This document shows positions 32,988 through 40,729 of a DNA stretch of 64,000 nt, in pieces. The first letter of the stretch is position 1, and every line of letters begins with the position of its first letter. The notes under the pieces are model-generated. The model worked only from the letters and a program-made list of their open reading frames with translations. It did not search any database and had not been told where the DNA came from. A program made the position numbers and the translations under genes. The stretch is from contig CAZXLH010000003.1 of assembly GCA_964641455.1 (NCBI GenBank), positions 8,592-72,591 on the forward strand. The letters are read 5' to 3'. Origin of the DNA: an uncultured Eubacteriales bacterium (GTDB lineage Bacteria; Bacillota; Sulfobacillia; Fermentithermobacillales; Fermentithermobacillaceae).

Positions 32988-33605
32988 CTACTTCACTATT
33001 TCTAACCAGTCAACGATAAGGAATTGCATCCTTGCAAGAAACAAAGATACACGGGCCATAACAGTTGTTCCAAACGCAGCGCCAAAAGCTATCATCATAG
33101 TGTACCTGCCTATCCAGGAACCATATTTAAGCGGGCCTTTTGGTTCGATCGTAAACAAAAAGAACGATAACGTACATATCACGCCTACCAGAAGAAGCGA
33201 AGCATTTATGGCCTCGGCACCGGTTGGGTTTGAAAGAGGCTTTATGGTAGCAATTACCTGGTCGATCAGCATGGGCTTCCACGTCTTGGTCAATACAACC
33301 CCTGCGCCTACACCGACAGTAAACGATATAGGGTATCTTGATAACCACTGAAGGCGCTTGCTAAACCTTGTATACATCAAAAGCCCCAAAATAATCGGAA
33401 CTATATAGTTCCACTTGCCCTTTTCAAGAATGTCTATCATTACCGCAGGCTTTATTCTGTTGCCGAACGTCATTGCAACAGCATACCCGGCTGTGGTACC
33501 CACAAAGATAGTTTCGGCAAAATAGTAAACTTCGCTCTCTTTGAAGATAATGCTGTAAAGAGCAAGGGTTAAAAACGCAGCAATCCAGTTTCCGATGTTA
33601 GCCAT
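32988..33605 (-). CDS. Uncharacterised polytopic membrane protein (DUF6754 cassette gene 4)
   Basis: About 6 hydrophobic segments, a G...GY motif and a C-terminal FGAAFG..VMAR motif; overlaps gene 3. Confidence 0.8.
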   Translation of the reverse strand: MANIGNWIAAFLTLALYSIIFKESEVYYFAETIFVGTTAGYAVAMTFGNRIKPAVMIDILEKGKWNYIVPIILGLLMYTRFSKRLQWLSRYPISFTVGVGAGVVLTKTWKPMLIDQVIATIKPLSNPTGAEAINASLLLVGVICTLSFFLFTIEPKGPLKYGSWIGRYTMMIAFGAAFGTTVMARVSLFLARMQFLIVDWLEIVK

Positions 33606-34440
33606 TACCTCTTGCCTCCTTTCTTTTGGAGAGGAAGTACTGAACGTTGCCGACTATCACAAAAAGTACAATTAGCAAGTGAGTTAGGCTCTGAGCATCC
33701 ATACCTACAGTGGCAGTACCGGGTGTATTGATCAATTGTTCATATTCGGCGGCCCCTTTCATGCCTGCGAGCATGCCGGTAAGCTGGCCTGATTGAAACA
33801 AAGGCATGCTTTCAGGGATACTCACAGCAAAACACGCCCCGGTAACCGGAACTCCCAATGGAACCCCAATCATCTTTACGTAAACTGAAAGCCCCTCGCC
33901 GAGTGACCCAATTGAGGCAGCCAAAGCTACATCCTTCAGAGATTTCACTTCTTGCATAAGCGGCATGGCTTCTAGCCGTTTTCCATAAAAGTCAACTCCG
34001 TTTGCCGCATTGATGATATCAACACCCATGGCTTCAAAAAACACGTTGCCCGAACCCTTGTAACCCAAATTAACCCAATCTTCACCGTATTTCTTATCAG
34101 GGAAGTCAGGCAATACAACATCCATAGCCCTTTCAAGCAAACTCCCTGACTCTGCTGTAATCCCTGCAGAAAGCACCTTGATATCCCTGGAAAAACAATG
34201 TCTGATTAAGGCAATCGCTGCAGGTTCCATTTCAGCCAAGGAAGATGCATAATAGTCAAAACCGATATAGACCGTTTTTCCGGATGGAATTGTATCGACG
34301 AAATCATATAGCACTTGGGTTTCCTTGCTAATTGGAATGGGCAGCCCGATAGGAGAAATAATGGCATATGCTACACACATAATAATCAAAATATATAGAA
34401 CATAATCCATCCGCCTGTCATTGGTTCCAGCCGTGTTCAT
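33598..34440 (-). CDS. Uncharacterised membrane protein with a soluble alpha/beta domain (cassette gene 3)
   Basis: N-terminal TM helix, soluble domain (DWVNLGY), LAGMKGAAEYE, and a C-terminal MDAQS..HL TM helix. Confidence 0.8.
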   Translation of the reverse strand: MNTAGTNDRRMDYVLYILIIMCVAYAIISPIGLPIPISKETQVLYDFVDTIPSGKTVYIGFDYYASSLAEMEPAAIALIRHCFSRDIKVLSAGITAESGSLLERAMDVVLPDFPDKKYGEDWVNLGYKGSGNVFFEAMGVDIINAANGVDFYGKRLEAMPLMQEVKSLKDVALAASIGSLGEGLSVYVKMIGVPLGVPVTGACFAVSIPESMPLFQSGQLTGMLAGMKGAAEYEQLINTPGTATVGMDAQSLTHLLIVLFVIVGNVQYFLSKRKEARGNG

Positions 34441-34459
34441 AACCTTTACCTCCCTTTGC

Positions 34460-35072
34460 TTAATCGGCGCCCAAATGCCTGCGCTCTATCCCTAGCATGA
34501 TTCTAAAAGCCTGGGATACAGCACCTATGGAAGCACCCAAAATTATGCCCCTCATGCCTGCGGTATTGGGAACATCCAAGATCCATCCGGAAATCTTGGG
34601 AATGGTTTTTGATATGGTTGCACCTATCGGCGCTTGCCCTAACATGACTATGACACCTGCAACAAGCAGCAAAGTAGCTTCGAAGTTTTTTGCACGGAAC
34701 GCTCTGTAAGAAGCGGAACCAATGTAAAACACCAATATCGAATACATTGTTCCATCCAACGGCACAATTACATTATTATAGATATAGCCAAGCCCCGGCC
34801 CTTGATGGCCTCCGAAAAGCCCTACACCTAAGGTTACATAGACGGAAAAGAAGGATACTCCTCCAATACCGGCCGCGTTTCAAGGAAATATTTTTGGTAT
34901 GGATACGCGTGAGGTTAATTACACCTAACATACATCCGACTGCACTTACTATAAGGAACCAATTATCCAAAGTAGACTTGACGGTAACGGCTACGGGAAT
35001 TGTAAAGTAATATGCCATGGCATAAATTATGCCGGCACAAAAGGTTATGGCTAACGGTAATTCACGTCTCAA
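34460..35072 (-). pseudogene. Membrane protein split by a frameshift near 34841-34852 (cassette gene 2)
   Basis: ORFs 34776..35072 and 34460..34765 join into one coherent membrane protein if the frame shifts at CTTTTCCGTC: ...WRSILLF / VYVTLGVGLFGGHQGPGLGYIYNNVIVPLDGTMYSIL... Confidence 0.75.
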
Positions 35073-35089
35073 GAGTACTCCTCCTTTCG

Positions 35090-35866
35090 TCAGATTTTAA
35101 GCACATTGACCAAAGTTTCGCTTCCGGTAAACATAAATATCGCACCTATAGCCGTTATCACAATCATTGCCACTTTCACAAAATCAGCCACAATCAAGCT
35201 TCCTATCAGTACAGGCTCCTCTGAGATATAAGCCGAAGCAGCATAAATTTCTTCGCCAATAAGACAATAGTCACACGCCGCCACGAAAAACGGGATTTGA
35301 TGCGTGTTCGCCGTACCGGCGATTTGTATTGCTCCAATCTCATAGCCTGTTTGAGCAAAAATGAGAGATTCTGCCCAAAAAGCACCTATGGCAATATTGG
35401 TGGCCACTCTTTCCCTGCGCATGATCCCTGTTACGCCTGTCGCATAACCGAACTGGTTATCGGTAAGAAATCGTACATCATCAGGATTAAAAGCATCCGG
35501 TTTGTTCTCAGTAAGATAAGCGTTCTTGATTATTTCCTCAGATAAGGTATGCACCAAAACCTTGTTGTTGCTCATGATAAGCGGAACATCATTTCTGGCA
35601 CATTTCCTGGCGACATAGTCCAAAATAGCCATTGAGGCCATAGTCTGAGCCTCATTAACATCGCTGATTCCCGGGGAAAAGTGCACAGGCCTACCCATCT
35701 CCGTTGCCCGGCCAATGGCCTCATCCAGGGCATCCAAACCACTCACTCGCCTGATAGACGGCAGTTTCCGGCCCTTTCTGGCACGGCCGATATAAAATAC
35801 GAGGGATATACAGAAAATCAACTGAGTCACAAAAGCCATGGTTTGTCCCTTAGCAATCAACGCCAC
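35090..35866 (-). CDS. DUF6754-domain membrane protein (cassette gene 1)
   Basis: IRRVSGLDALDEAIGRATEMGRPVHF, QIPFFVAACDYCLIGEEIYAASAY; strong GGAGG RBS. Confidence 0.75.
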   Translation of the reverse strand: MALIAKGQTMAFVTQLIFCISLVFYIGRARKGRKLPSIRRVSGLDALDEAIGRATEMGRPVHFSPGISDVNEAQTMASMAILDYVARKCARNDVPLIMSNNKVLVHTLSEEIIKNAYLTENKPDAFNPDDVRFLTDNQFGYATGVTGIMRRERVATNIAIGAFWAESLIFAQTGYEIGAIQIAGTANTHQIPFFVAACDYCLIGEEIYAASAYISEEPVLIGSLIVADFVKVAMIVITAIGAIFMFTGSETLVNVLKI

Positions 35867-36425
35867 TATAATCCTCCTCTCACATTAATTAACAAGGCAA
35901 CCGCTTGCTATCCACGACACTTCTCAGCACAATCTGTACACAGACAAGTCACGGAGATATATTTGAAACCAATAAGACTGCACGGTAAATAAAGCAAACA
36001 GAAACTTGTAAGCGATTCCCCCCTTTCGATTTGCTTAAGCGGATCACACCGACGCAAAACCAAGGGCCTGAGATTGTGGTATGTTTATCGCTGCAGGTGG
36101 TTGTAGCATAATAGGAATGACTGTTTTTACCATTCTGCGGAGCTATATAACATTCCTGCCAGGACTTAATAAATATTCAGCTTAGTTTGAAGATATTTGC
36201 CTGATCAGAAAATGTTACAATATGGTTGGCCTGACGTATCATATATAGGCCTGCTCTGTGCATCAACATGTTGCAACCAGGTTCACCATGTTTGCAGAAG
36301 CAGCCACTAAGCCCGAACCTGAAACGCAACAAGGTTCAAGGGGAGGAATCACCGTGAAATTAAGATACATGTCTCTACAGCAAGAAGGGGTAAATCCCAT
36401 AACGGATTTTGGCCGGAAAAGGATA

Positions 36426-38066
36426 GTGTCAAAACGCCCCTTGCAAATTGCTGTAGTTTCTTTTCTGTTTGTTTTGTGCTTTTTCTTATTCCCCCGTGTC
36501 GCCTTTGGAGCCTTTAGATACTATATTCCAAAGCAGCAAGATCAACTTACCGTTAATGAAGACAGTTCTGTTGGATTAATACGGTATTTTGAGTTTGCAG
36601 TAGACCAAAGTTCTACTGATTCAGGCACCGAGATTTGGATAGGGCTTCCCACTTCAAGAACTCAGGTATCGTCGGTAACTGATGATAAGGGGAATAACGT
36701 TACTTTTAAAACCCAAATATCAGGCGGTGATTACACCCTGATTTTGACCGGGTTTGACGCCATAGAACCGGGAAAGGCTAAAGGGTTTACAGTTGAAGCG
36801 GTTATCCCAGAGTTCTTGTTTCCGGATTCTGAAAATGAAGGGTACGCCACAATGAAGTATATACCCGGGTGGTGGTCATCTCAAGTTAAAGTGCAAGATA
36901 TTGCAGTAATCTTACCGGGTGGCGTGGAAAAAGACGAGATAAAAACGGGAACCGGCGAATGGGACGGAATCGCCCAAACCGAGTCAGGGGCTTATGTGGT
37001 TACATGGCGCTTTGAAAACCTGGGAGCAGGCGAAAAAGTATCCGTCAACATTGGGATTCCCGATACGTACGTGACACTGCCGGTGAAGGAAGAACCTGTA
37101 CCGGTAATTCCTCCCGAGCCACTTCCTTCTCACCGGGTACCCGGCATTGGGCATTCAGGTAATTTTGGCGCCATCTTTGGCTTATTTGCAGTAGCTGTCA
37201 TTGTGATTGTGGCAATAGGCATAGCCACCGGAATGAAAGAAGATTACTCACCGCCCCGGGTAAGCATGGAAGGGATAGGCGTCAACGAAACCCTGTCTCC
37301 TGTTGAAGTTTCCATACTTTTGAGGCAACCGCCTGAGAAAACCATGACACTGCTTTTGTTCTCACTTATTAAGAAAGGAATAGTAAGAGCATATTCAACT
37401 GAACCCTTAAGACTGTCTGTTCATTACGAAAGGGACTTATCAGAAGTTGAAGAACTCTTCTTGAAAGCCATTGACAGAAATACAGGAGAACTTGATCAAA
37501 CAAAACTCACTTACGTTTTCAGATTCATGGCTGCTTCTGTAAATGAGAAAATGAAGCCTTACTGCCGAAAAGACACAGAAGCTTTCTACCGCGGGCACAT
37601 AGCGAATCTTTGGGCTGAGGTTAGGGCGGCAAACACACCCGAGTTGAAACTTGAGTCTTTTGACAAGAATCTTCTGTGGCTCATTCAAGACGAAATTAAA
37701 CTTAAGGAATCTGAAAGCATTTTTGATTCCGAACAGAAAAAAGCAGCCTGGTGGCCCAATTGGTGGCTCATGGGCTTTCCTTACGGAAGAGGATATTTCG
37801 GCATTCACTGGTGGCCTATGGCAATGTATCACTCGTTTACAGGCATCTCAAGCGGCATAATACATGGCAACGAAGAAAAGTACAGGAAAATTACTGAGTC
37901 AGTGTTTACCCCGGCCAGGCCTGTGCCTGCCAGGAGCATTTTCGGCGGCAAAAGCGGCGGAACAAGCCATCACGGAGGATTTACCCCTCCCAGTTGTGCA
38001 TGTGCTTGCGCCTGTGTTTCCTGTGCCTGTGCATGTGCTTGTGCAGGCGGTGGGGGATGCACTTAG
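36426..38066 (+). CDS. Signal-peptide, single-pass membrane protein (DUF2207-like) with a C-terminal Cys-Ala repeat tail
   Basis: Start taken at the GTG at 36426 after GGAAAAGG. Order of regions: hydrophobic signal ending VAFG-A, beta-rich ectodomain, Pro-rich linker, TM helix FGAIFGLFAVAVIVIVAIGI, cytoplasmic domain, and tail SCACACACVSCACACACAGGGGCT. Confidence 0.85.
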   Translation: MSKRPLQIAVVSFLFVLCFFLFPRVAFGAFRYYIPKQQDQLTVNEDSSVGLIRYFEFAVDQSSTDSGTEIWIGLPTSRTQVSSVTDDKGNNVTFKTQISGGDYTLILTGFDAIEPGKAKGFTVEAVIPEFLFPDSENEGYATMKYIPGWWSSQVKVQDIAVILPGGVEKDEIKTGTGEWDGIAQTESGAYVVTWRFENLGAGEKVSVNIGIPDTYVTLPVKEEPVPVIPPEPLPSHRVPGIGHSGNFGAIFGLFAVAVIVIVAIGIATGMKEDYSPPRVSMEGIGVNETLSPVEVSILLRQPPEKTMTLLLFSLIKKGIVRAYSTEPLRLSVHYERDLSEVEELFLKAIDRNTGELDQTKLTYVFRFMAASVNEKMKPYCRKDTEAFYRGHIANLWAEVRAANTPELKLESFDKNLLWLIQDEIKLKESESIFDSEQKKAAWWPNWWLMGFPYGRGYFGIHWWPMAMYHSFTGISSGIIHGNEEKYRKITESVFTPARPVPARSIFGGKSGGTSHHGGFTPPSCACACACVSCACACACAGGGGCT

Positions 38067-38082
38067 TTATAGTTATCAGGTC

Positions 38083-38397
38083 ATGCCCATAGATACGAAA
38101 CTACTGGATGGGGGAATTATCATTACCGACCAACTTAATTCAATGTGGCTGCTCATAACATATAATATCTTTGCCTGTGCATTGATGGGCTATGATAAGT
38201 ACCAAGCCTTCCGCCGGCGGCGGCGAATACCGGAAAAGACGCTCTTTGCTGTAGCCCTTACCGGCGGCAGCTTGGGGATCTTAGCCGGCATGTTTTTCTT
38301 CCGCCACAAAACCAGACACTTGAGTTTTAAGTTGGGAATACCGGCAATTCTGGTGCTACAAGTATGGTTACTGTGGTATTGCCGGACCGGACACTAA
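38083..38397 (+). CDS. DUF1294-family small membrane protein
   Basis: MGYDKYQA....RIPEKTL......GGSLG....FRHKTRH..F motif; ATG 17 bp after the previous stop. Confidence 0.85.
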   Translation: MPIDTKLLDGGIIITDQLNSMWLLITYNIFACALMGYDKYQAFRRRRRIPEKTLFAVALTGGSLGILAGMFFFRHKTRHLSFKLGIPAILVLQVWLLWYCRTGH

Positions 38398-38520
38398 GGA
38401 TGGGCCTGGTTTTCCGTTTGCCAACCGCGTACCAGGTCCAAAAGTCGAGATATGAAAGCAATGGTAATGATCCAATTCAACCTTTTACCCCATACCGCAT
38501 TTCGCCGGTTACCTGCAGAC

Positions 38521-39987
38521 TTACCTGTAGATGCTGGCTCCGGGCCTGCGTTCCAGGGGACAACCTCCGCCACATAGGTCGAGTTCCTCGCATGAGATAC
38601 ATTCCTCAGGAAGCACAGGGAAATCAGGGTGTGTGACAACCCCCGGAATTCTCCGTTTTCTCAACGCCTGAGCCAATCGATGATTCCAAATATCCGGAAA
38701 CTGATCTGTAAGCGCATTGCCTATAGATTTGTAATATGACTGGCACGGCATCACGTTGGCGTCAGGTTCAATGGCCATAACAGTGCTTGCGGCCGAACAC
38801 GTCTTAACACCCAGGGCAAGATCCACCGGGTTCAATTCCTTGTAACAAGTCGGCGTATACCATATAAACGGGAAATCTTCATCTGCCGATACCTTAATCA
38901 CTTCGTCTAAAAGATCCTTTAGCTCCTCAGGTTCAAGCCCTTCATGTGACACTCCGCGGCCTGAACGTATCAAAGCATTGAGGCCGAATTTTTTCACGCC
39001 AAGGGTTTTTATGAATCTTATTGTCTCAATAACCGAATCTTTATTATCCCTGGTTATGGTGGTATTAGTGGTTGTGTATATCCTTGACGCTGCATTCCTT
39101 ATGCCGTCTACCGTTTCAGCCCATGCACCCTCCACCCCTACCATCTTGTCGTGAACCTCAGGGCTGAGTGATTCAAGTGTGACCTGGGCAAAATCCAACC
39201 CGGCTTCGGCCAATTCCGCAACTCTTGGCCCGGTAAGAAGCCTGCCATTGGTGATAAGGCCGGTAATAAGGCCGCTGTCTTCAGCATGTTGCACCAAAAC
39301 ATCAATACCATCTCTTAACAGCGGTTCCCCGCCTGTAAATACTACTGTAGGAACTCCCCAATCAGATAACCTGTCGATAATTTGCTTCCACGAGTTTATG
39401 GAAATCTCCCGTGTACTGTGAGGCCCGCCTGCATAGCAATGGCTGCAATTGTTCTGGCACCTATAGGTGAGAATCAGATCGCATCTGTATGGAGCGGAAA
39501 GTTCAACTGACAACGGATCTATGCGCCTTACTTCGAATTCCGAAAACGGGCACATGCCTCCTTCAGCAACAGCAATCACCGAACCCCAGAGCCTTTCCCA
39601 ATCAGGTGCAGCCCGGCTCTCTTCCACCTTAAACTTGCGCCTTATTCTCCTTATCACCCTGGGAGCGAGCGCCGTGCCAACCTCCCGCGGATTGGAAATA
39701 TCAATTGAGTTCAAACTTACATCAGGGGTTTTACCCAAGATTCTGGCTAGCAGGCCCGGGGAAGCCGCTGCGCCTGTGCCTACTCCAAATCCTTCTCCGG
39801 ATTCTTCCCGCCCGCTCCCGGCAATGGCCAGCCTTTCGTATTCATCAAAGAAAGCCTCAAAATAAGCCCTGGCTATATTATCAAGAAACAAAGCAGCCTG
39901 AGCATTAATTATCAGAACTCCGGTTTTGTCAGCCTCTCTTCGCAAGTGGAGTTTCAAATCACCTATCCGGATCTTTAGCATAAACAC
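38521..39987 (-). CDS. Radical SAM/SPASM-domain protein with a PqqD/RRE-like N-terminal domain
   Basis: CQNNCSHC, FTGGEPLLR, ITNG, and SPASM Cys motifs CSAA...IEPDANVMPC and CISCEELDLCGGGCP; about 150-aa N-terminal extension with three beta strands then helices. Confidence 0.9.
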   Translation of the reverse strand: MFMLKIRIGDLKLHLRREADKTGVLIINAQAALFLDNIARAYFEAFFDEYERLAIAGSGREESGEGFGVGTGAAASPGLLARILGKTPDVSLNSIDISNPREVGTALAPRVIRRIRRKFKVEESRAAPDWERLWGSVIAVAEGGMCPFSEFEVRRIDPLSVELSAPYRCDLILTYRCQNNCSHCYAGGPHSTREISINSWKQIIDRLSDWGVPTVVFTGGEPLLRDGIDVLVQHAEDSGLITGLITNGRLLTGPRVAELAEAGLDFAQVTLESLSPEVHDKMVGVEGAWAETVDGIRNAASRIYTTTNTTITRDNKDSVIETIRFIKTLGVKKFGLNALIRSGRGVSHEGLEPEELKDLLDEVIKVSADEDFPFIWYTPTCYKELNPVDLALGVKTCSAASTVMAIEPDANVMPCQSYYKSIGNALTDQFPDIWNHRLAQALRKRRIPGVVTHPDFPVLPEECISCEELDLCGGGCPLERRPGASIYR

Positions 39988-40023
39988 CGCACCCTTTCTT
40001 TATGGCAATGCGCCCGGGCTCGC

Positions 40024-40102
40024 TGAAACACCGGGGACGGTCCTAAATGTTTCATCCTAAAACATCAGGGACGAAACATCAGGGACGGTCCTAAACGTTT
40101 CA
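40024..40102. repeat. Two (plus a partial) 31-bp elements with terminal inverted repeats, REP-like
   Basis: TGAAACA-CCGGGGACGGTCCTAAA-TGTTTCA at 40024-40054, a partial AAACATCAGGGAC, then GAAACAT-CAGGGACGGTCCTAA-ACGTTTCA. Confidence 0.7.
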
Positions 40103-40293
40103 ATCTCATTCCGCGTCTTTACCTGTGCAATTCATTCCAACGTCCGACTACTATTCTACTATGAAACATTAGACATTGGGGAAGGTCGATGGACAATGAT
40201 TTCGTTACCTTATACTCTTAATAGCCCCCTAATATGCCAACGCCAGGCTTGCCTGAGAGCCAGCCTGCAAAACGAGGCTCAACCAGGGCTCCT

Positions 40294-40688
40294 TGGTACA
40301 GGTGGCGTACCACCCACCAGTGATTGTGCCTCGGACGGTGCTGAATGGTACACGTGATGTACCACTCACCAGGTGATTGTGCCTCGGACGGTGCTGAATG
40401 GTACACATGGCGTACCACTCGGCAGGTGATTGTGCCTCGGACAGTGCTGAATGGTACACGTGGCGTACCACTCACCAGGTGATTGTGCCTCGGACGGTGC
40501 TGAATGGTACACGTGATGTACCACTCACCAGGTGATTGTGCCTCGGACGGTGCTGAATGGTACACGTAGCGTACCACTCGGCAGGTGATTGTGCCTCGAA
40601 CAGTGCTGAATGGTACACGTGGCGTACCACTCGGCAGGTGATTGTGCCTCGAACAGTGCTGAATGGTACACATGGCGTACCACTCGGC
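40294..40688. repeat. 53-bp tandem repeat array, 7 full units plus a partial unit, each with a palindrome
   Basis: Units start at 40294 (52 bp), 40346, 40399, 40452, 40505, 40558, 40611 and 40664 (partial). Consensus TGGTACACGTGGCGTACCACTC(ACC/GGC)AGGTGATTGTGCCTCGGAC(G/A)GTGCTGAA. Confidence 0.97.
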
Positions 40689-40729
40689 CTATGATTTTGC
40701 AGTTAACTAAGCCTAGTCAGGCGGGAACA

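Follow-up and report, generated by a model that had tools for sequence, protein, structure and literature searches.

To our knowledge, radical S-adenosylmethionine (radical-SAM) maturases are known mainly for small peptide natural products, and whole-protein cases are few: QhpD, anaerobic sulfatase maturation, and CrpC. QhpD acts on a whole protein subunit, and in the SCIFF/CteB, SkfA/SkfB, and QhpC/QhpD systems radical-SAM enzymes with a SPASM or twitch domain join a Cys sulfur to the carbon of another residue. Dense CxC motifs also occur in metallothioneins and in the C-terminal CxCxxxxCxC of CopY, where they form metal-thiolate clusters. In Methanococcus voltae, CrpC, which combines a recognition element (RRE) for peptides that are made on ribosomes and modified after translation (RiPPs) with radical-SAM and SPASM domains, installs thioethers on its large Cys-rich neighbor protein CrpA (PMC13692751, Sept 2026). 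The StsA/StsB and BlaA/BlaB hairpin sactipeptides have an alternating-Cys core (CxCxC) with Gly acceptors, and the product of StsB carries hairpin Cys-to-Gly sactionines on a CxCxC...GxGxG core (PMC10288494). The Cys-rich tails of some TIGR04222 membrane proteins of aerobes were proposed, in a survey of oxidative enzymes that depend on multinuclear non-heme iron (MNIO enzymes), to be MNIO-modified in a copper-binding bufferin context (PMC12452194). Here we describe a gene pair in a 64,000-nt stretch of contig CAZXLH010000003.1 (the whole of which we call the window) from an uncultured Eubacteriales bacterium of an anaerobic digester. One gene encodes a membrane protein that ends in an alternating Cys-Ala tail followed by Gly residues, (Cys-Ala)n-GGG; the other, convergent with it, encodes an RRE-like/radical-SAM/SPASM enzyme that, on balance, we think modifies the tail.

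The pair resembles each of these systems in part, coming nearest to CrpA/CrpC, StsA/StsB, and the TIGR04222-MNIO proposals. Like CrpA/CrpC, it joins an RRE-like/radical-SAM/SPASM enzyme to a large, putative Cys-rich substrate encoded alongside, with C-terminal cysteines and, in part of the family, an archaeal anaerobe as host; unlike the tail protein, CrpA is soluble, consists of ten 17-residue repeats with CxxQ/D motifs and has no terminal (Cys-Ala)n-GGG, and the paper that describes it makes no mention of Methanocella, Bathyarchaeia, transmembrane proteins, or DUF2207 (PMC13692751). CrpC corresponds to TIGR04463; the 25 best NCBIfam matches of the window enzyme, all below cut-off, do not include this model. 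StsA shares the alternating Cys, but it is a short leader-core peptide served by a separate RRE protein, StsC (PMC10288494), whereas both arms of the window tail bear Cys. The TIGR04222-MNIO proteins belong to the same remote superfamily as the tail protein, and for their Cys-rich, low-complexity C-terminal tails, too, modification on the intact protein has been proposed; however, their partner is an O2-dependent MNIO (DUF692), they are found mostly in Actinomycetota, and their Ser/Gly/Cys tails are variable and predicted to be periplasmic (PMC12452194). The window system is anaerobic, with an oxygen-sensitive radical-SAM partner and an invariant tail predicted to be cytoplasmic, and both systems are proposals. 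The models for SCIFF/CteB, SkfA/SkfB, and QhpC/QhpD fall below cut-off for the window enzyme, and these systems act on short peptides or on a small soluble subunit, none of them with a Cys-Ala repeat. Metallothioneins and CopY have no dedicated radical-SAM partner, their residues between Cys are variable, and they show no sequence or family match to the tail protein. No description of the tail/enzyme pair or of a Cys-Ala-tail family was found in the literature, Pfam, or NCBIfam, and for TIGR04222/DUF2207 the literature found consisted only of the MNIO survey (PMC12452194) and an S. mutans DUF2207 phenotype paper. The pair would thus be a case, undescribed in the searchable literature, in which a radical-SAM/SPASM enzyme matures the Cys-rich C-terminal region of a full-length membrane protein.

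The gene for the tail protein spans 36258..38066 on the forward strand and encodes 602 amino acids counted from the first GTG, although the real start is probably later: the ATG at 36288 agrees with database protein P0001 (592 amino acids), and alignment of homologs suggests the GTG at 36354 or the ATG at 36369. The open reading frame (ORF) ends in ...HHGGFTPPS-CACACACVSCACACACAGGGGCT-stop, with the tail at 37995..38063 (+) and the TAG stop codon at 38064-38066. Nine Cys lie in the last 23 residues and two in the remaining approximately 570. A first reading of the DNA alone (the sequence-only reading) had listed the codons of this tail, and its list and its count of nine Cys in the last 23 residues are reproduced exactly from the sequence; it had located the tail correctly but began it one codon early, at 37992, which is an AGT Ser codon, the first TGT being at 37995.

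To assess conservation independently of the tail itself, homologs were searched for with words from only the first 500 residues of the protein. The Cys-Ala tail ends all 36 homologs found in this way, at identities from 25 to 100%. Among the 22 homologs with at least 50% identity, 21 have the identical 26-residue end PPSCACACACVSCACACACAGGGGCT and the remaining one differs at one residue; homologs at 25 to 34% identity end in SCACVSCACACVSCACACACAGGGGGCT or ...CACACACVSCACACASGGVG, and the invariant C-terminal columns of the alignment are C-A-C-A-C-A-G-G-x-G. An exhaustive profile search returned 1,120 representatives of 50% identity clusters at E ≤ 1e-3, 296 of them at E ≤ 1e-30; a (Cys-Ala)n tail ends 127 of the 148 newly listed top proteins, and nearly all of the others look like truncated fragments. 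One very large subfamily (1,567 or more clusters at 90% identity, with Chloroflexota/Anaerolineae as its few named members) has the C-terminus GGG-CACACACAG-CACACA-GGGR. All variants share CACACA-GGG at the very C-terminus, with one to three further residues after it, and no other part of the protein is conserved as well as the tail.

At 70 genome and metagenome loci, the 15-residue core CACACACVSCACACA is specified by 64 distinct DNA sequences without a single nonsynonymous change. These use both Cys, all four Ala, all four Val, and all six Ser codons, and differ on average by 9.4 of 45 nt in pairwise comparison. One of the two patterns with which the 70 loci were retrieved was the tail itself, and the unbiased evidence for conservation is therefore that of the first-500-residue homologs and the exhaustive profile search. 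The pattern of substitution indicates that the tail is under purifying selection at the protein level as strong as that at an active site. This bears out the view of the sequence-only reading that the feature is selected as protein and is not a slipped microsatellite, and the alignment of tails that it had called for shows the Cys spacing and the Gly run kept from Bacillota to Bathyarchaeia and Chloroflexota. The hosts of the family are Bathyarchaeia, Methanocella, Chloroflexota, and a few Bacillota; because this distribution is patchy and the family has its center of gravity in Bathyarchaeia, it suggests that the Bacillota clade gained the tail/enzyme pair horizontally.

The tail gene almost always travels with the enzyme gene. 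In 71 of 74 judgeable loci, i.e., those with a complete tail gene and enough flank, an enzyme ortholog lies within 3 kb: immediately downstream and co-directional in 63, convergent as in the window in 5, and upstream in 3. In many archaeal loci the two genes are just 3 to 7 nt apart by the chosen start coordinates, and because they abut, there is no room in these loci for an alternative small substrate; nor was a small Cys-rich ORF that could serve as one found beside the enzyme in the window. The remaining neighbors of the pair differ completely among lineages. When the window's genome was considered together with 40 relatives, 9 of the 41 genomes were found to encode the tail protein, the identical 9 to encode an enzyme ortholog (322-633 bits), and 32 to encode neither. 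If the genomes are taken as independent, the probability of this split is 1/C(41,9), about 3e-9, but the nine genomes fall in four or five genera and the true support is therefore weaker. The perfect co-occurrence suggests that, without the enzyme, the tail has no use.

The enzyme gene occupies 38521..39987 on the reverse strand, with a likely ATG start at 39981, and encodes 486 to 488 amino acids. Its product scores 95 bits against the radical-SAM family PF04055 and 32.1 bits (cut-off 21.5) against PF13186. The CxxxCxxC radical-SAM cluster motif, CQNNCSHC, followed by Tyr, is at 39436..39459 (-), where C175, C179, C182, and Y183 are invariant; the SPASM region, delineated by Pfam and by alignment, contains C395...G408x4C413 and C461xxC464x5C470x3C474 (38560..38799, -). 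The N-terminal domain (39562..39981, -) is approximately 135 to 160 residues long. In the AlphaFold model of the enzyme, with a pLDDT (predicted local distance difference test) of 84 and a predicted template modeling score of 0.86, this domain opens with four strands and three helices in the layout of RRE/PqqD. Compared over its full length, the model is closest in fold to SuiB, SkfB, and CteB, all RiPP maturases with an N-terminal RRE, and the closest relatives of solved structure by sequence are the sactisynthase SkfB (7e-31), PqqE, and SuiB. PqqD (PF05402) matches 3 of 10 enzyme orthologs below threshold, at best with 22.9 bits against a cut-off of 23.4, and the match is weak or faint in two Chloroflexota orthologs. 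We compared the enzyme with the named NCBIfam radical-SAM models StsB, SkfB, AlbA, PqqE, MftC, SbtM, NirJ/Ahb, and TIGR04347. The window enzyme and its archaeal and Chloroflexota orthologs are all below every curated cut-off in NCBIfam; the best score is 131 bits to TIGR04347 (cut-off 525), and the scores to StsB, SkfB, and SbtM are 77 to 86 (625), 76 (300), and 59 (350).

Several further features of the enzyme were observed. The RRE-like domain carries, between its first two helices, a Gly/Ser/Ala-rich insertion of approximately 50 residues (39670-39830, -), which is disordered in the model (pLDDT below 50 at residues 62-84) and full-length only in the window and loci L001 and L008, being shorter or absent in other relatives. 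At 38521-38545 (-) the window enzyme ends in ...PGASIYR, whereas the closest relatives end in ...GASICR, ...GSRCR, or ...PGPCR. The last SPASM Cys is thus replaced by Tyr (TAT rather than TGT, a single base), and some archaeal orthologs also lack it; the Tyr may leave a cluster coordination site open or may be a sequence variant. In a number of loci (L017, L019, L021, L037, L044, and others) the enzyme ORF carries MCLCLCRLCLCL-type N-terminal extensions, in which the Cys-Ala repeat is read in another frame. These were discounted as stop-to-stop artefacts, the true start being MSFLRK..., from an ATG a few bases past the stop of the tail gene.

Six residues in proximity to the catalytic site were defined by Precord et al. 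(PMC10288494). In the sactisynthase StsB, positions 1 to 4 are Y113, T147, I174, and S199, with spacings of 34, 27, and 25 and the outward-facing neighbors F146, M173, and V198, whereas in the ranthisynthase CteB they are F, F, T, and S (PMC10288494). For the window enzyme, we set the positions by landmarks, namely the residue after CxxxCxxC, FT-GGEP, LI-TNG, and VT-LES, which gave Y183, T216, I243, and T268, with spacings of 33, 27, and 25 and the outward-facing neighbors F215, L242, and V267. The four residues mapped in this way appear to resemble those of StsB, a resemblance that we take as a lead on chemistry only. Chemistry of the StsB type would at least fit an invariant CACACA with GGG after it.

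The architecture predicted for the tail protein would place tail and enzyme in the same compartment. An N-terminal hydrophobic helix, either a signal peptide or a signal anchor (36438..36503, +; hydropathy 2.42; AlphaFold helix 51-66 of P0001), is preceded by the K/R-rich stretch GRKRIVSKRP. It is followed by a putative extracytoplasmic β-sandwich, remotely similar to the N-terminal domain of DUF2207 (36519..37061, +; residues 78-258, pLDDT mostly above 90), for which Foldseek returned ribophorin I/Ost1 and the N-domain of M1 aminopeptidases, and by a single internal transmembrane helix (37170..37232, +; hydropathy 2.99; AlphaFold helix 296-315). Beyond this helix are a winged-helix and helical domain similar to TIGR04222/DUF2207_C and presumed cytoplasmic (37299..37721, +; AlphaFold 338-478), and a segment at 37734..37991 (+) composed of an aromatic-rich stretch, the amphipathic helix EEKYRKITESVF, TPARP, and a Gly/Ser/His-rich linker. 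Since hydropathy predicts only these two transmembrane helices, with basic residues ahead of the first, the C-terminal half of the protein, tail included, is predicted to be cytoplasmic, a topology that the basic residues also favor modestly on the side after the second helix. The cytoplasm is also where radical-SAM enzymes operate. The AlphaFold model has a mean pLDDT of 72 and ends in two further helices after 338-478 and then the disordered tail. The tail has a pLDDT below 50, and the suggestion in the sequence-only reading that strict alternation puts all thiols on one face of a strand is without structural backing.

The helical domain contains an almost invariant motif, PYCR(K/R)(D/E)T..(F/Y)Y, present in the window as PYCRKDTEAFYR at 37530-37560 (+) with the core PYCRKDT, and apart from the tail cysteines, the Cys of this motif is the sole one that is well conserved. 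Most family members have, upstream of the tail, PGADFA..IV...E..S..IV..VE.F...VTNPPP and then a Gly/Ser linker of 10 to 20 residues; in the clade of the window this element takes the form EEKYRKITESVFTPARP, again with the linker after it. The segment at 37734..37991 is our candidate for a recognition ("leader-like") element and tether. A Pfam scan of the tail protein found no family at E ≤ 0.01, and its scores are below the curated cut-offs for TIGR04222 (16.6 bits; cut-off 43) and DUF2207_C (PF20990, 15.5 bits; cut-off 33). Across 33 members, however, subthreshold matches recur, to TIGR04222 in 26 (in the same region), to DUF2207_C in 13, and to the DUF2207 N-terminal domain (PF09972) in 12, with best E-values of 9e-6 (TIGR04222) and 1.3e-4. 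The architecture of the superfamily is present as well: an outside β-sandwich, a transmembrane helix, a helical/winged-helix domain, and a low-complexity Gly/Cys-rich C-terminus, members of DUF2207/TIGR04222 typically ending in Gly/Ser/Cys-rich low-complexity tails. Because the subthreshold matches recur across members, profile comparison indicates that the family is a remote, unnamed branch of the DUF2207/TIGR04222 superfamily rather than a member by the models.

We therefore favor, as somewhat the better than even interpretation, modification by the enzyme of the tail of the whole membrane protein. In this scheme the protein would be bitopic, with the DUF2207-like β-sandwich outside, one transmembrane helix, and the winged-helix/helical domain inside, followed by the conserved amphipathic helix with its Pro motif, the flexible Gly/Ser linker, and the (Cys-Ala)n-GGG end. 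The RRE-like N-terminal domain of the enzyme would dock on the conserved segment upstream of the tail, and the flexible linker would allow the tail to reach the active site, where 5'-deoxyadenosyl radical chemistry would couple Cys sulfurs to carbons of nearby Ala or Gly, most likely as sactionine-type thioethers. The outcome would be a knot, rigid and crosslinked, that faces the cytoplasm and may bind metal, with the tail still attached to the full-length protein. That the bonds are thioethers is a plausible proposal to which we give slightly less than even odds. The sequence-only reading had set thioether crosslinking aside and put forward metal or Fe-S binding, redox sensing, or processing at the Gly run. 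The computations speak neither for nor against these functions, and the strongest evidence, the RRE-like/radical-SAM/SPASM neighbor and the perfect co-occurrence, favors crosslinking. Unlike the invariance of the tail, the linkage, the co-occurrence, the enzyme domains, and the predicted topology, the role of the tail as substrate, the recognition element, and the bond type are things that we infer. Metal binding may be the end purpose of the modified tail. A bolder extension, which we hold to be improbable, is that the (Cys-Ala)n-GGG end becomes a protein-bound, multiply crosslinked or heterocyclized, metal-binding prosthetic group, borne by a membrane receptor of the DUF2207/TIGR04222 type on its cytoplasmic face, an anaerobic counterpart of the O2-dependent MNIO-TIGR04222/bufferin systems; if true, it would constitute a new class of protein-derived cofactor in Bathyarchaeia, methanogens, Chloroflexota, and some Bacillota.

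A number of points weigh against enzymatic modification of the tail. For the whole family, the chemistry is a prediction from sequence and models. The RRE is subthreshold by sequence, and the window enzyme itself has no PqqD match and carries the approximately 50-residue insertion. In addition, the last SPASM Cys of close relatives is Tyr (ASIYR) in the window enzyme. Active-site positions 1 to 4 were assigned from landmarks rather than from the StsB sequence, and positions 5 and 6 were unmappable, comparison of the SPASM part with Protein Data Bank sequences having given only an insignificant match to TigE. Cys-X-Cys is a classic metal-thiolate motif for which no enzyme is needed, and a hairpin register with a two-residue turn would set Cys opposite Cys and not opposite Ala. 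Finally, the link between the genes can be broken: one Chloroflexota genome has the tail gene beside hypE and a 622-bit enzyme ortholog on another contig, and a relative within the same family has its enzyme gene, with an in-frame TAG, on another contig.

Runs of CxC are a hallmark of metal-thiolate clusters, and the metallothionein β-domain has nine Cys, equal to the count in the tail; both would suit an unmodified metal- or Fe-S-binding module, which would supply the enzyme with clusters or electrons or dock it at the membrane, unless the enzyme has some other substrate. The three Fe-S clusters that the enzyme requires, the hypE-hypD-hypF metal-center maturation genes beside the tail gene in one lineage, and the fact that the two genes can be unlinked within a genome also favor such a module, and related TIGR04222 tails have been discussed in a copper-handling context (PMC12452194). 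A metallothionein-like identity may be read from the CxC pattern, no Pfam or NCBIfam model matching the tail. An unmodified module would leave a RiPP-type partner with an RRE-like domain unexplained, and likewise the Ala, Val-Ser, and terminal GGG residues, which are as invariant as the Cys although metal sites usually tolerate changes between ligands; the perfect co-occurrence of tail and enzyme also speaks against it, and we consider it unlikely, though worth keeping in view. We give a good deal less credence to a self-sacrificing RiPP precursor, in which approximately 570 residues would serve as a giant leader and cleavage at the Gly/Ser linker would set free the modified 20- to 25-residue tail, a small hydrophobic peptide. 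The C-terminal position after a flexible Gly-rich linker does resemble a leader-core architecture, and borosins provide a precedent for cores fused to large proteins, but no protease or exporter is conserved beside the pair in any lineage examined, and the other domains are well conserved and folded, a high cost for a leader used once that delivers one tail per 600-residue protein.

Two explanations dispense with crosslinking by the enzyme or with function altogether. The tail scores 1.85 to 2.25 on a 19-residue Kyte-Doolittle window, as might a hydrophobic membrane-inserting or lipid-modified anchor, and the hosts are strict anaerobes, in which thiol oxidation would be informative to a poly-thiol redox or oxygen sensor. 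However, the Cys-Ala block of the largest subfamily is just 15 residues between Gly runs, too short for a transmembrane helix, and on this ground a transmembrane anchor was rejected; moreover, no basic anchor follows the tail and the enzyme would be left without a role, which makes an anchor or sensor of this kind very improbable. A chance low-complexity end, or a functionless hexanucleotide repeat at the DNA level, has practically no likelihood. Tandem Repeats Finder does report a 6-nt array in the tail DNA, but it is imperfect (74% matches, score 38), and the motif TGYGCN three times followed by GGN three times occurs once in the 2.5-Mb genome. The many DNA versions encode one peptide, synonymous change being saturated without replacement, and the tail is present in all complete homologs across two domains of life; synonymous-site analysis, Tandem Repeats Finder, and genome pattern counts together rule out microsatellite or chance origin.

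If the tail is modified as we favor, a membrane protein would carry a new type of post-translational modification, one branch of the large, unexplained DUF2207/TIGR04222 superfamily would acquire a function, and radical-SAM chemistry on a repetitive Cys-Ala template could be studied in a simple system of two genes. Otherwise, the tail would be an unusual, strictly conserved metal/redox module, whose dependence on a radical-SAM partner would still need explaining. In either case, the pair is very widespread in the uncultured anaerobes that dominate sediments and digesters, including Bathyarchaeia, Anaerolineae, and Methanocella, and the 15- to 25-residue tail motif is more conserved than most active sites.

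The exceptions to linkage have genomic contexts of their own. In one Chloroflexota lineage (L086:1868-2482 and L087:8659-13178) the tail gene is convergent with hypE-hypD-hypF, the hydrogenase metal-center maturation genes; because the arrangement is confined to that lineage, the adjacency is probably coincidental. The unlinked Chloroflexota enzyme ortholog, on contig G041:C22, adjoins a 277-amino acid ORF, which we presume, without a family scan, to encode a methyltransferase, and annotated methyltransferases are also found near the tail/enzyme pair in L004 and L087. The unlinked pair with the in-frame TAG in its enzyme ortholog is at G024:C44:50630-51973 and G024:C20:29032-30645; the TAG may reflect decay or an assembly artefact. 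At one Bathyarchaeota locus, only a 150-residue remnant of the enzyme is left.

Other genes near the pair were also inspected. A gene for a small DUF1294 membrane protein (38083..38397, +; PF06961, 82 bits) begins 17 nt 3' of the tail gene, between it and the enzyme gene, and is annotated in L001 as well. It is probably not a core part of the system, because the gap between the two genes can accommodate DUF1294 only in the nearest relatives (L001, L006, and L008). A divergent cassette of four membrane-protein genes, including one for a DUF6754 protein (323 bits), lies at 32988-35866 (-); neither this cassette nor DUF1294 is kept with the pair outside the closest relatives, and both were dismissed as parts of the system. 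No MNIO (DUF692) gene was found beside the tail protein among the scanned neighbors in the window or in the annotated loci. A scan of 35800-40300 for promoters and terminators gave nothing that exceeded the shuffled background, and the single terminator-like match, at 37996-38011, is the Cys-Ala coding repeat itself.

In 66 loci from Bathyarchaeia and Chloroflexota, a third conserved gene is found immediately upstream of the tail gene, whose start it often overlaps (e.g., L004:7642-8007, L016:5546-6010, L023:5561-5914, L088:6576-7007, and L089:6469-6834). Its product, of approximately 115 to 145 amino acids, has two transmembrane helices and, at the C-terminus, a Cys4 zinc ribbon that ends in EEP[KTL]W. 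This gene is absent from the window and its Bacillota clade (L001-L003, L006, L008, and L010), and in Methanocella the upstream protein is longer and has a different zinc-ribbon end. Just upstream of the enzyme gene in the window, at 40218-40690, repeated reading frames of approximately 52 amino acids on both strands indicate a tandem DNA array.

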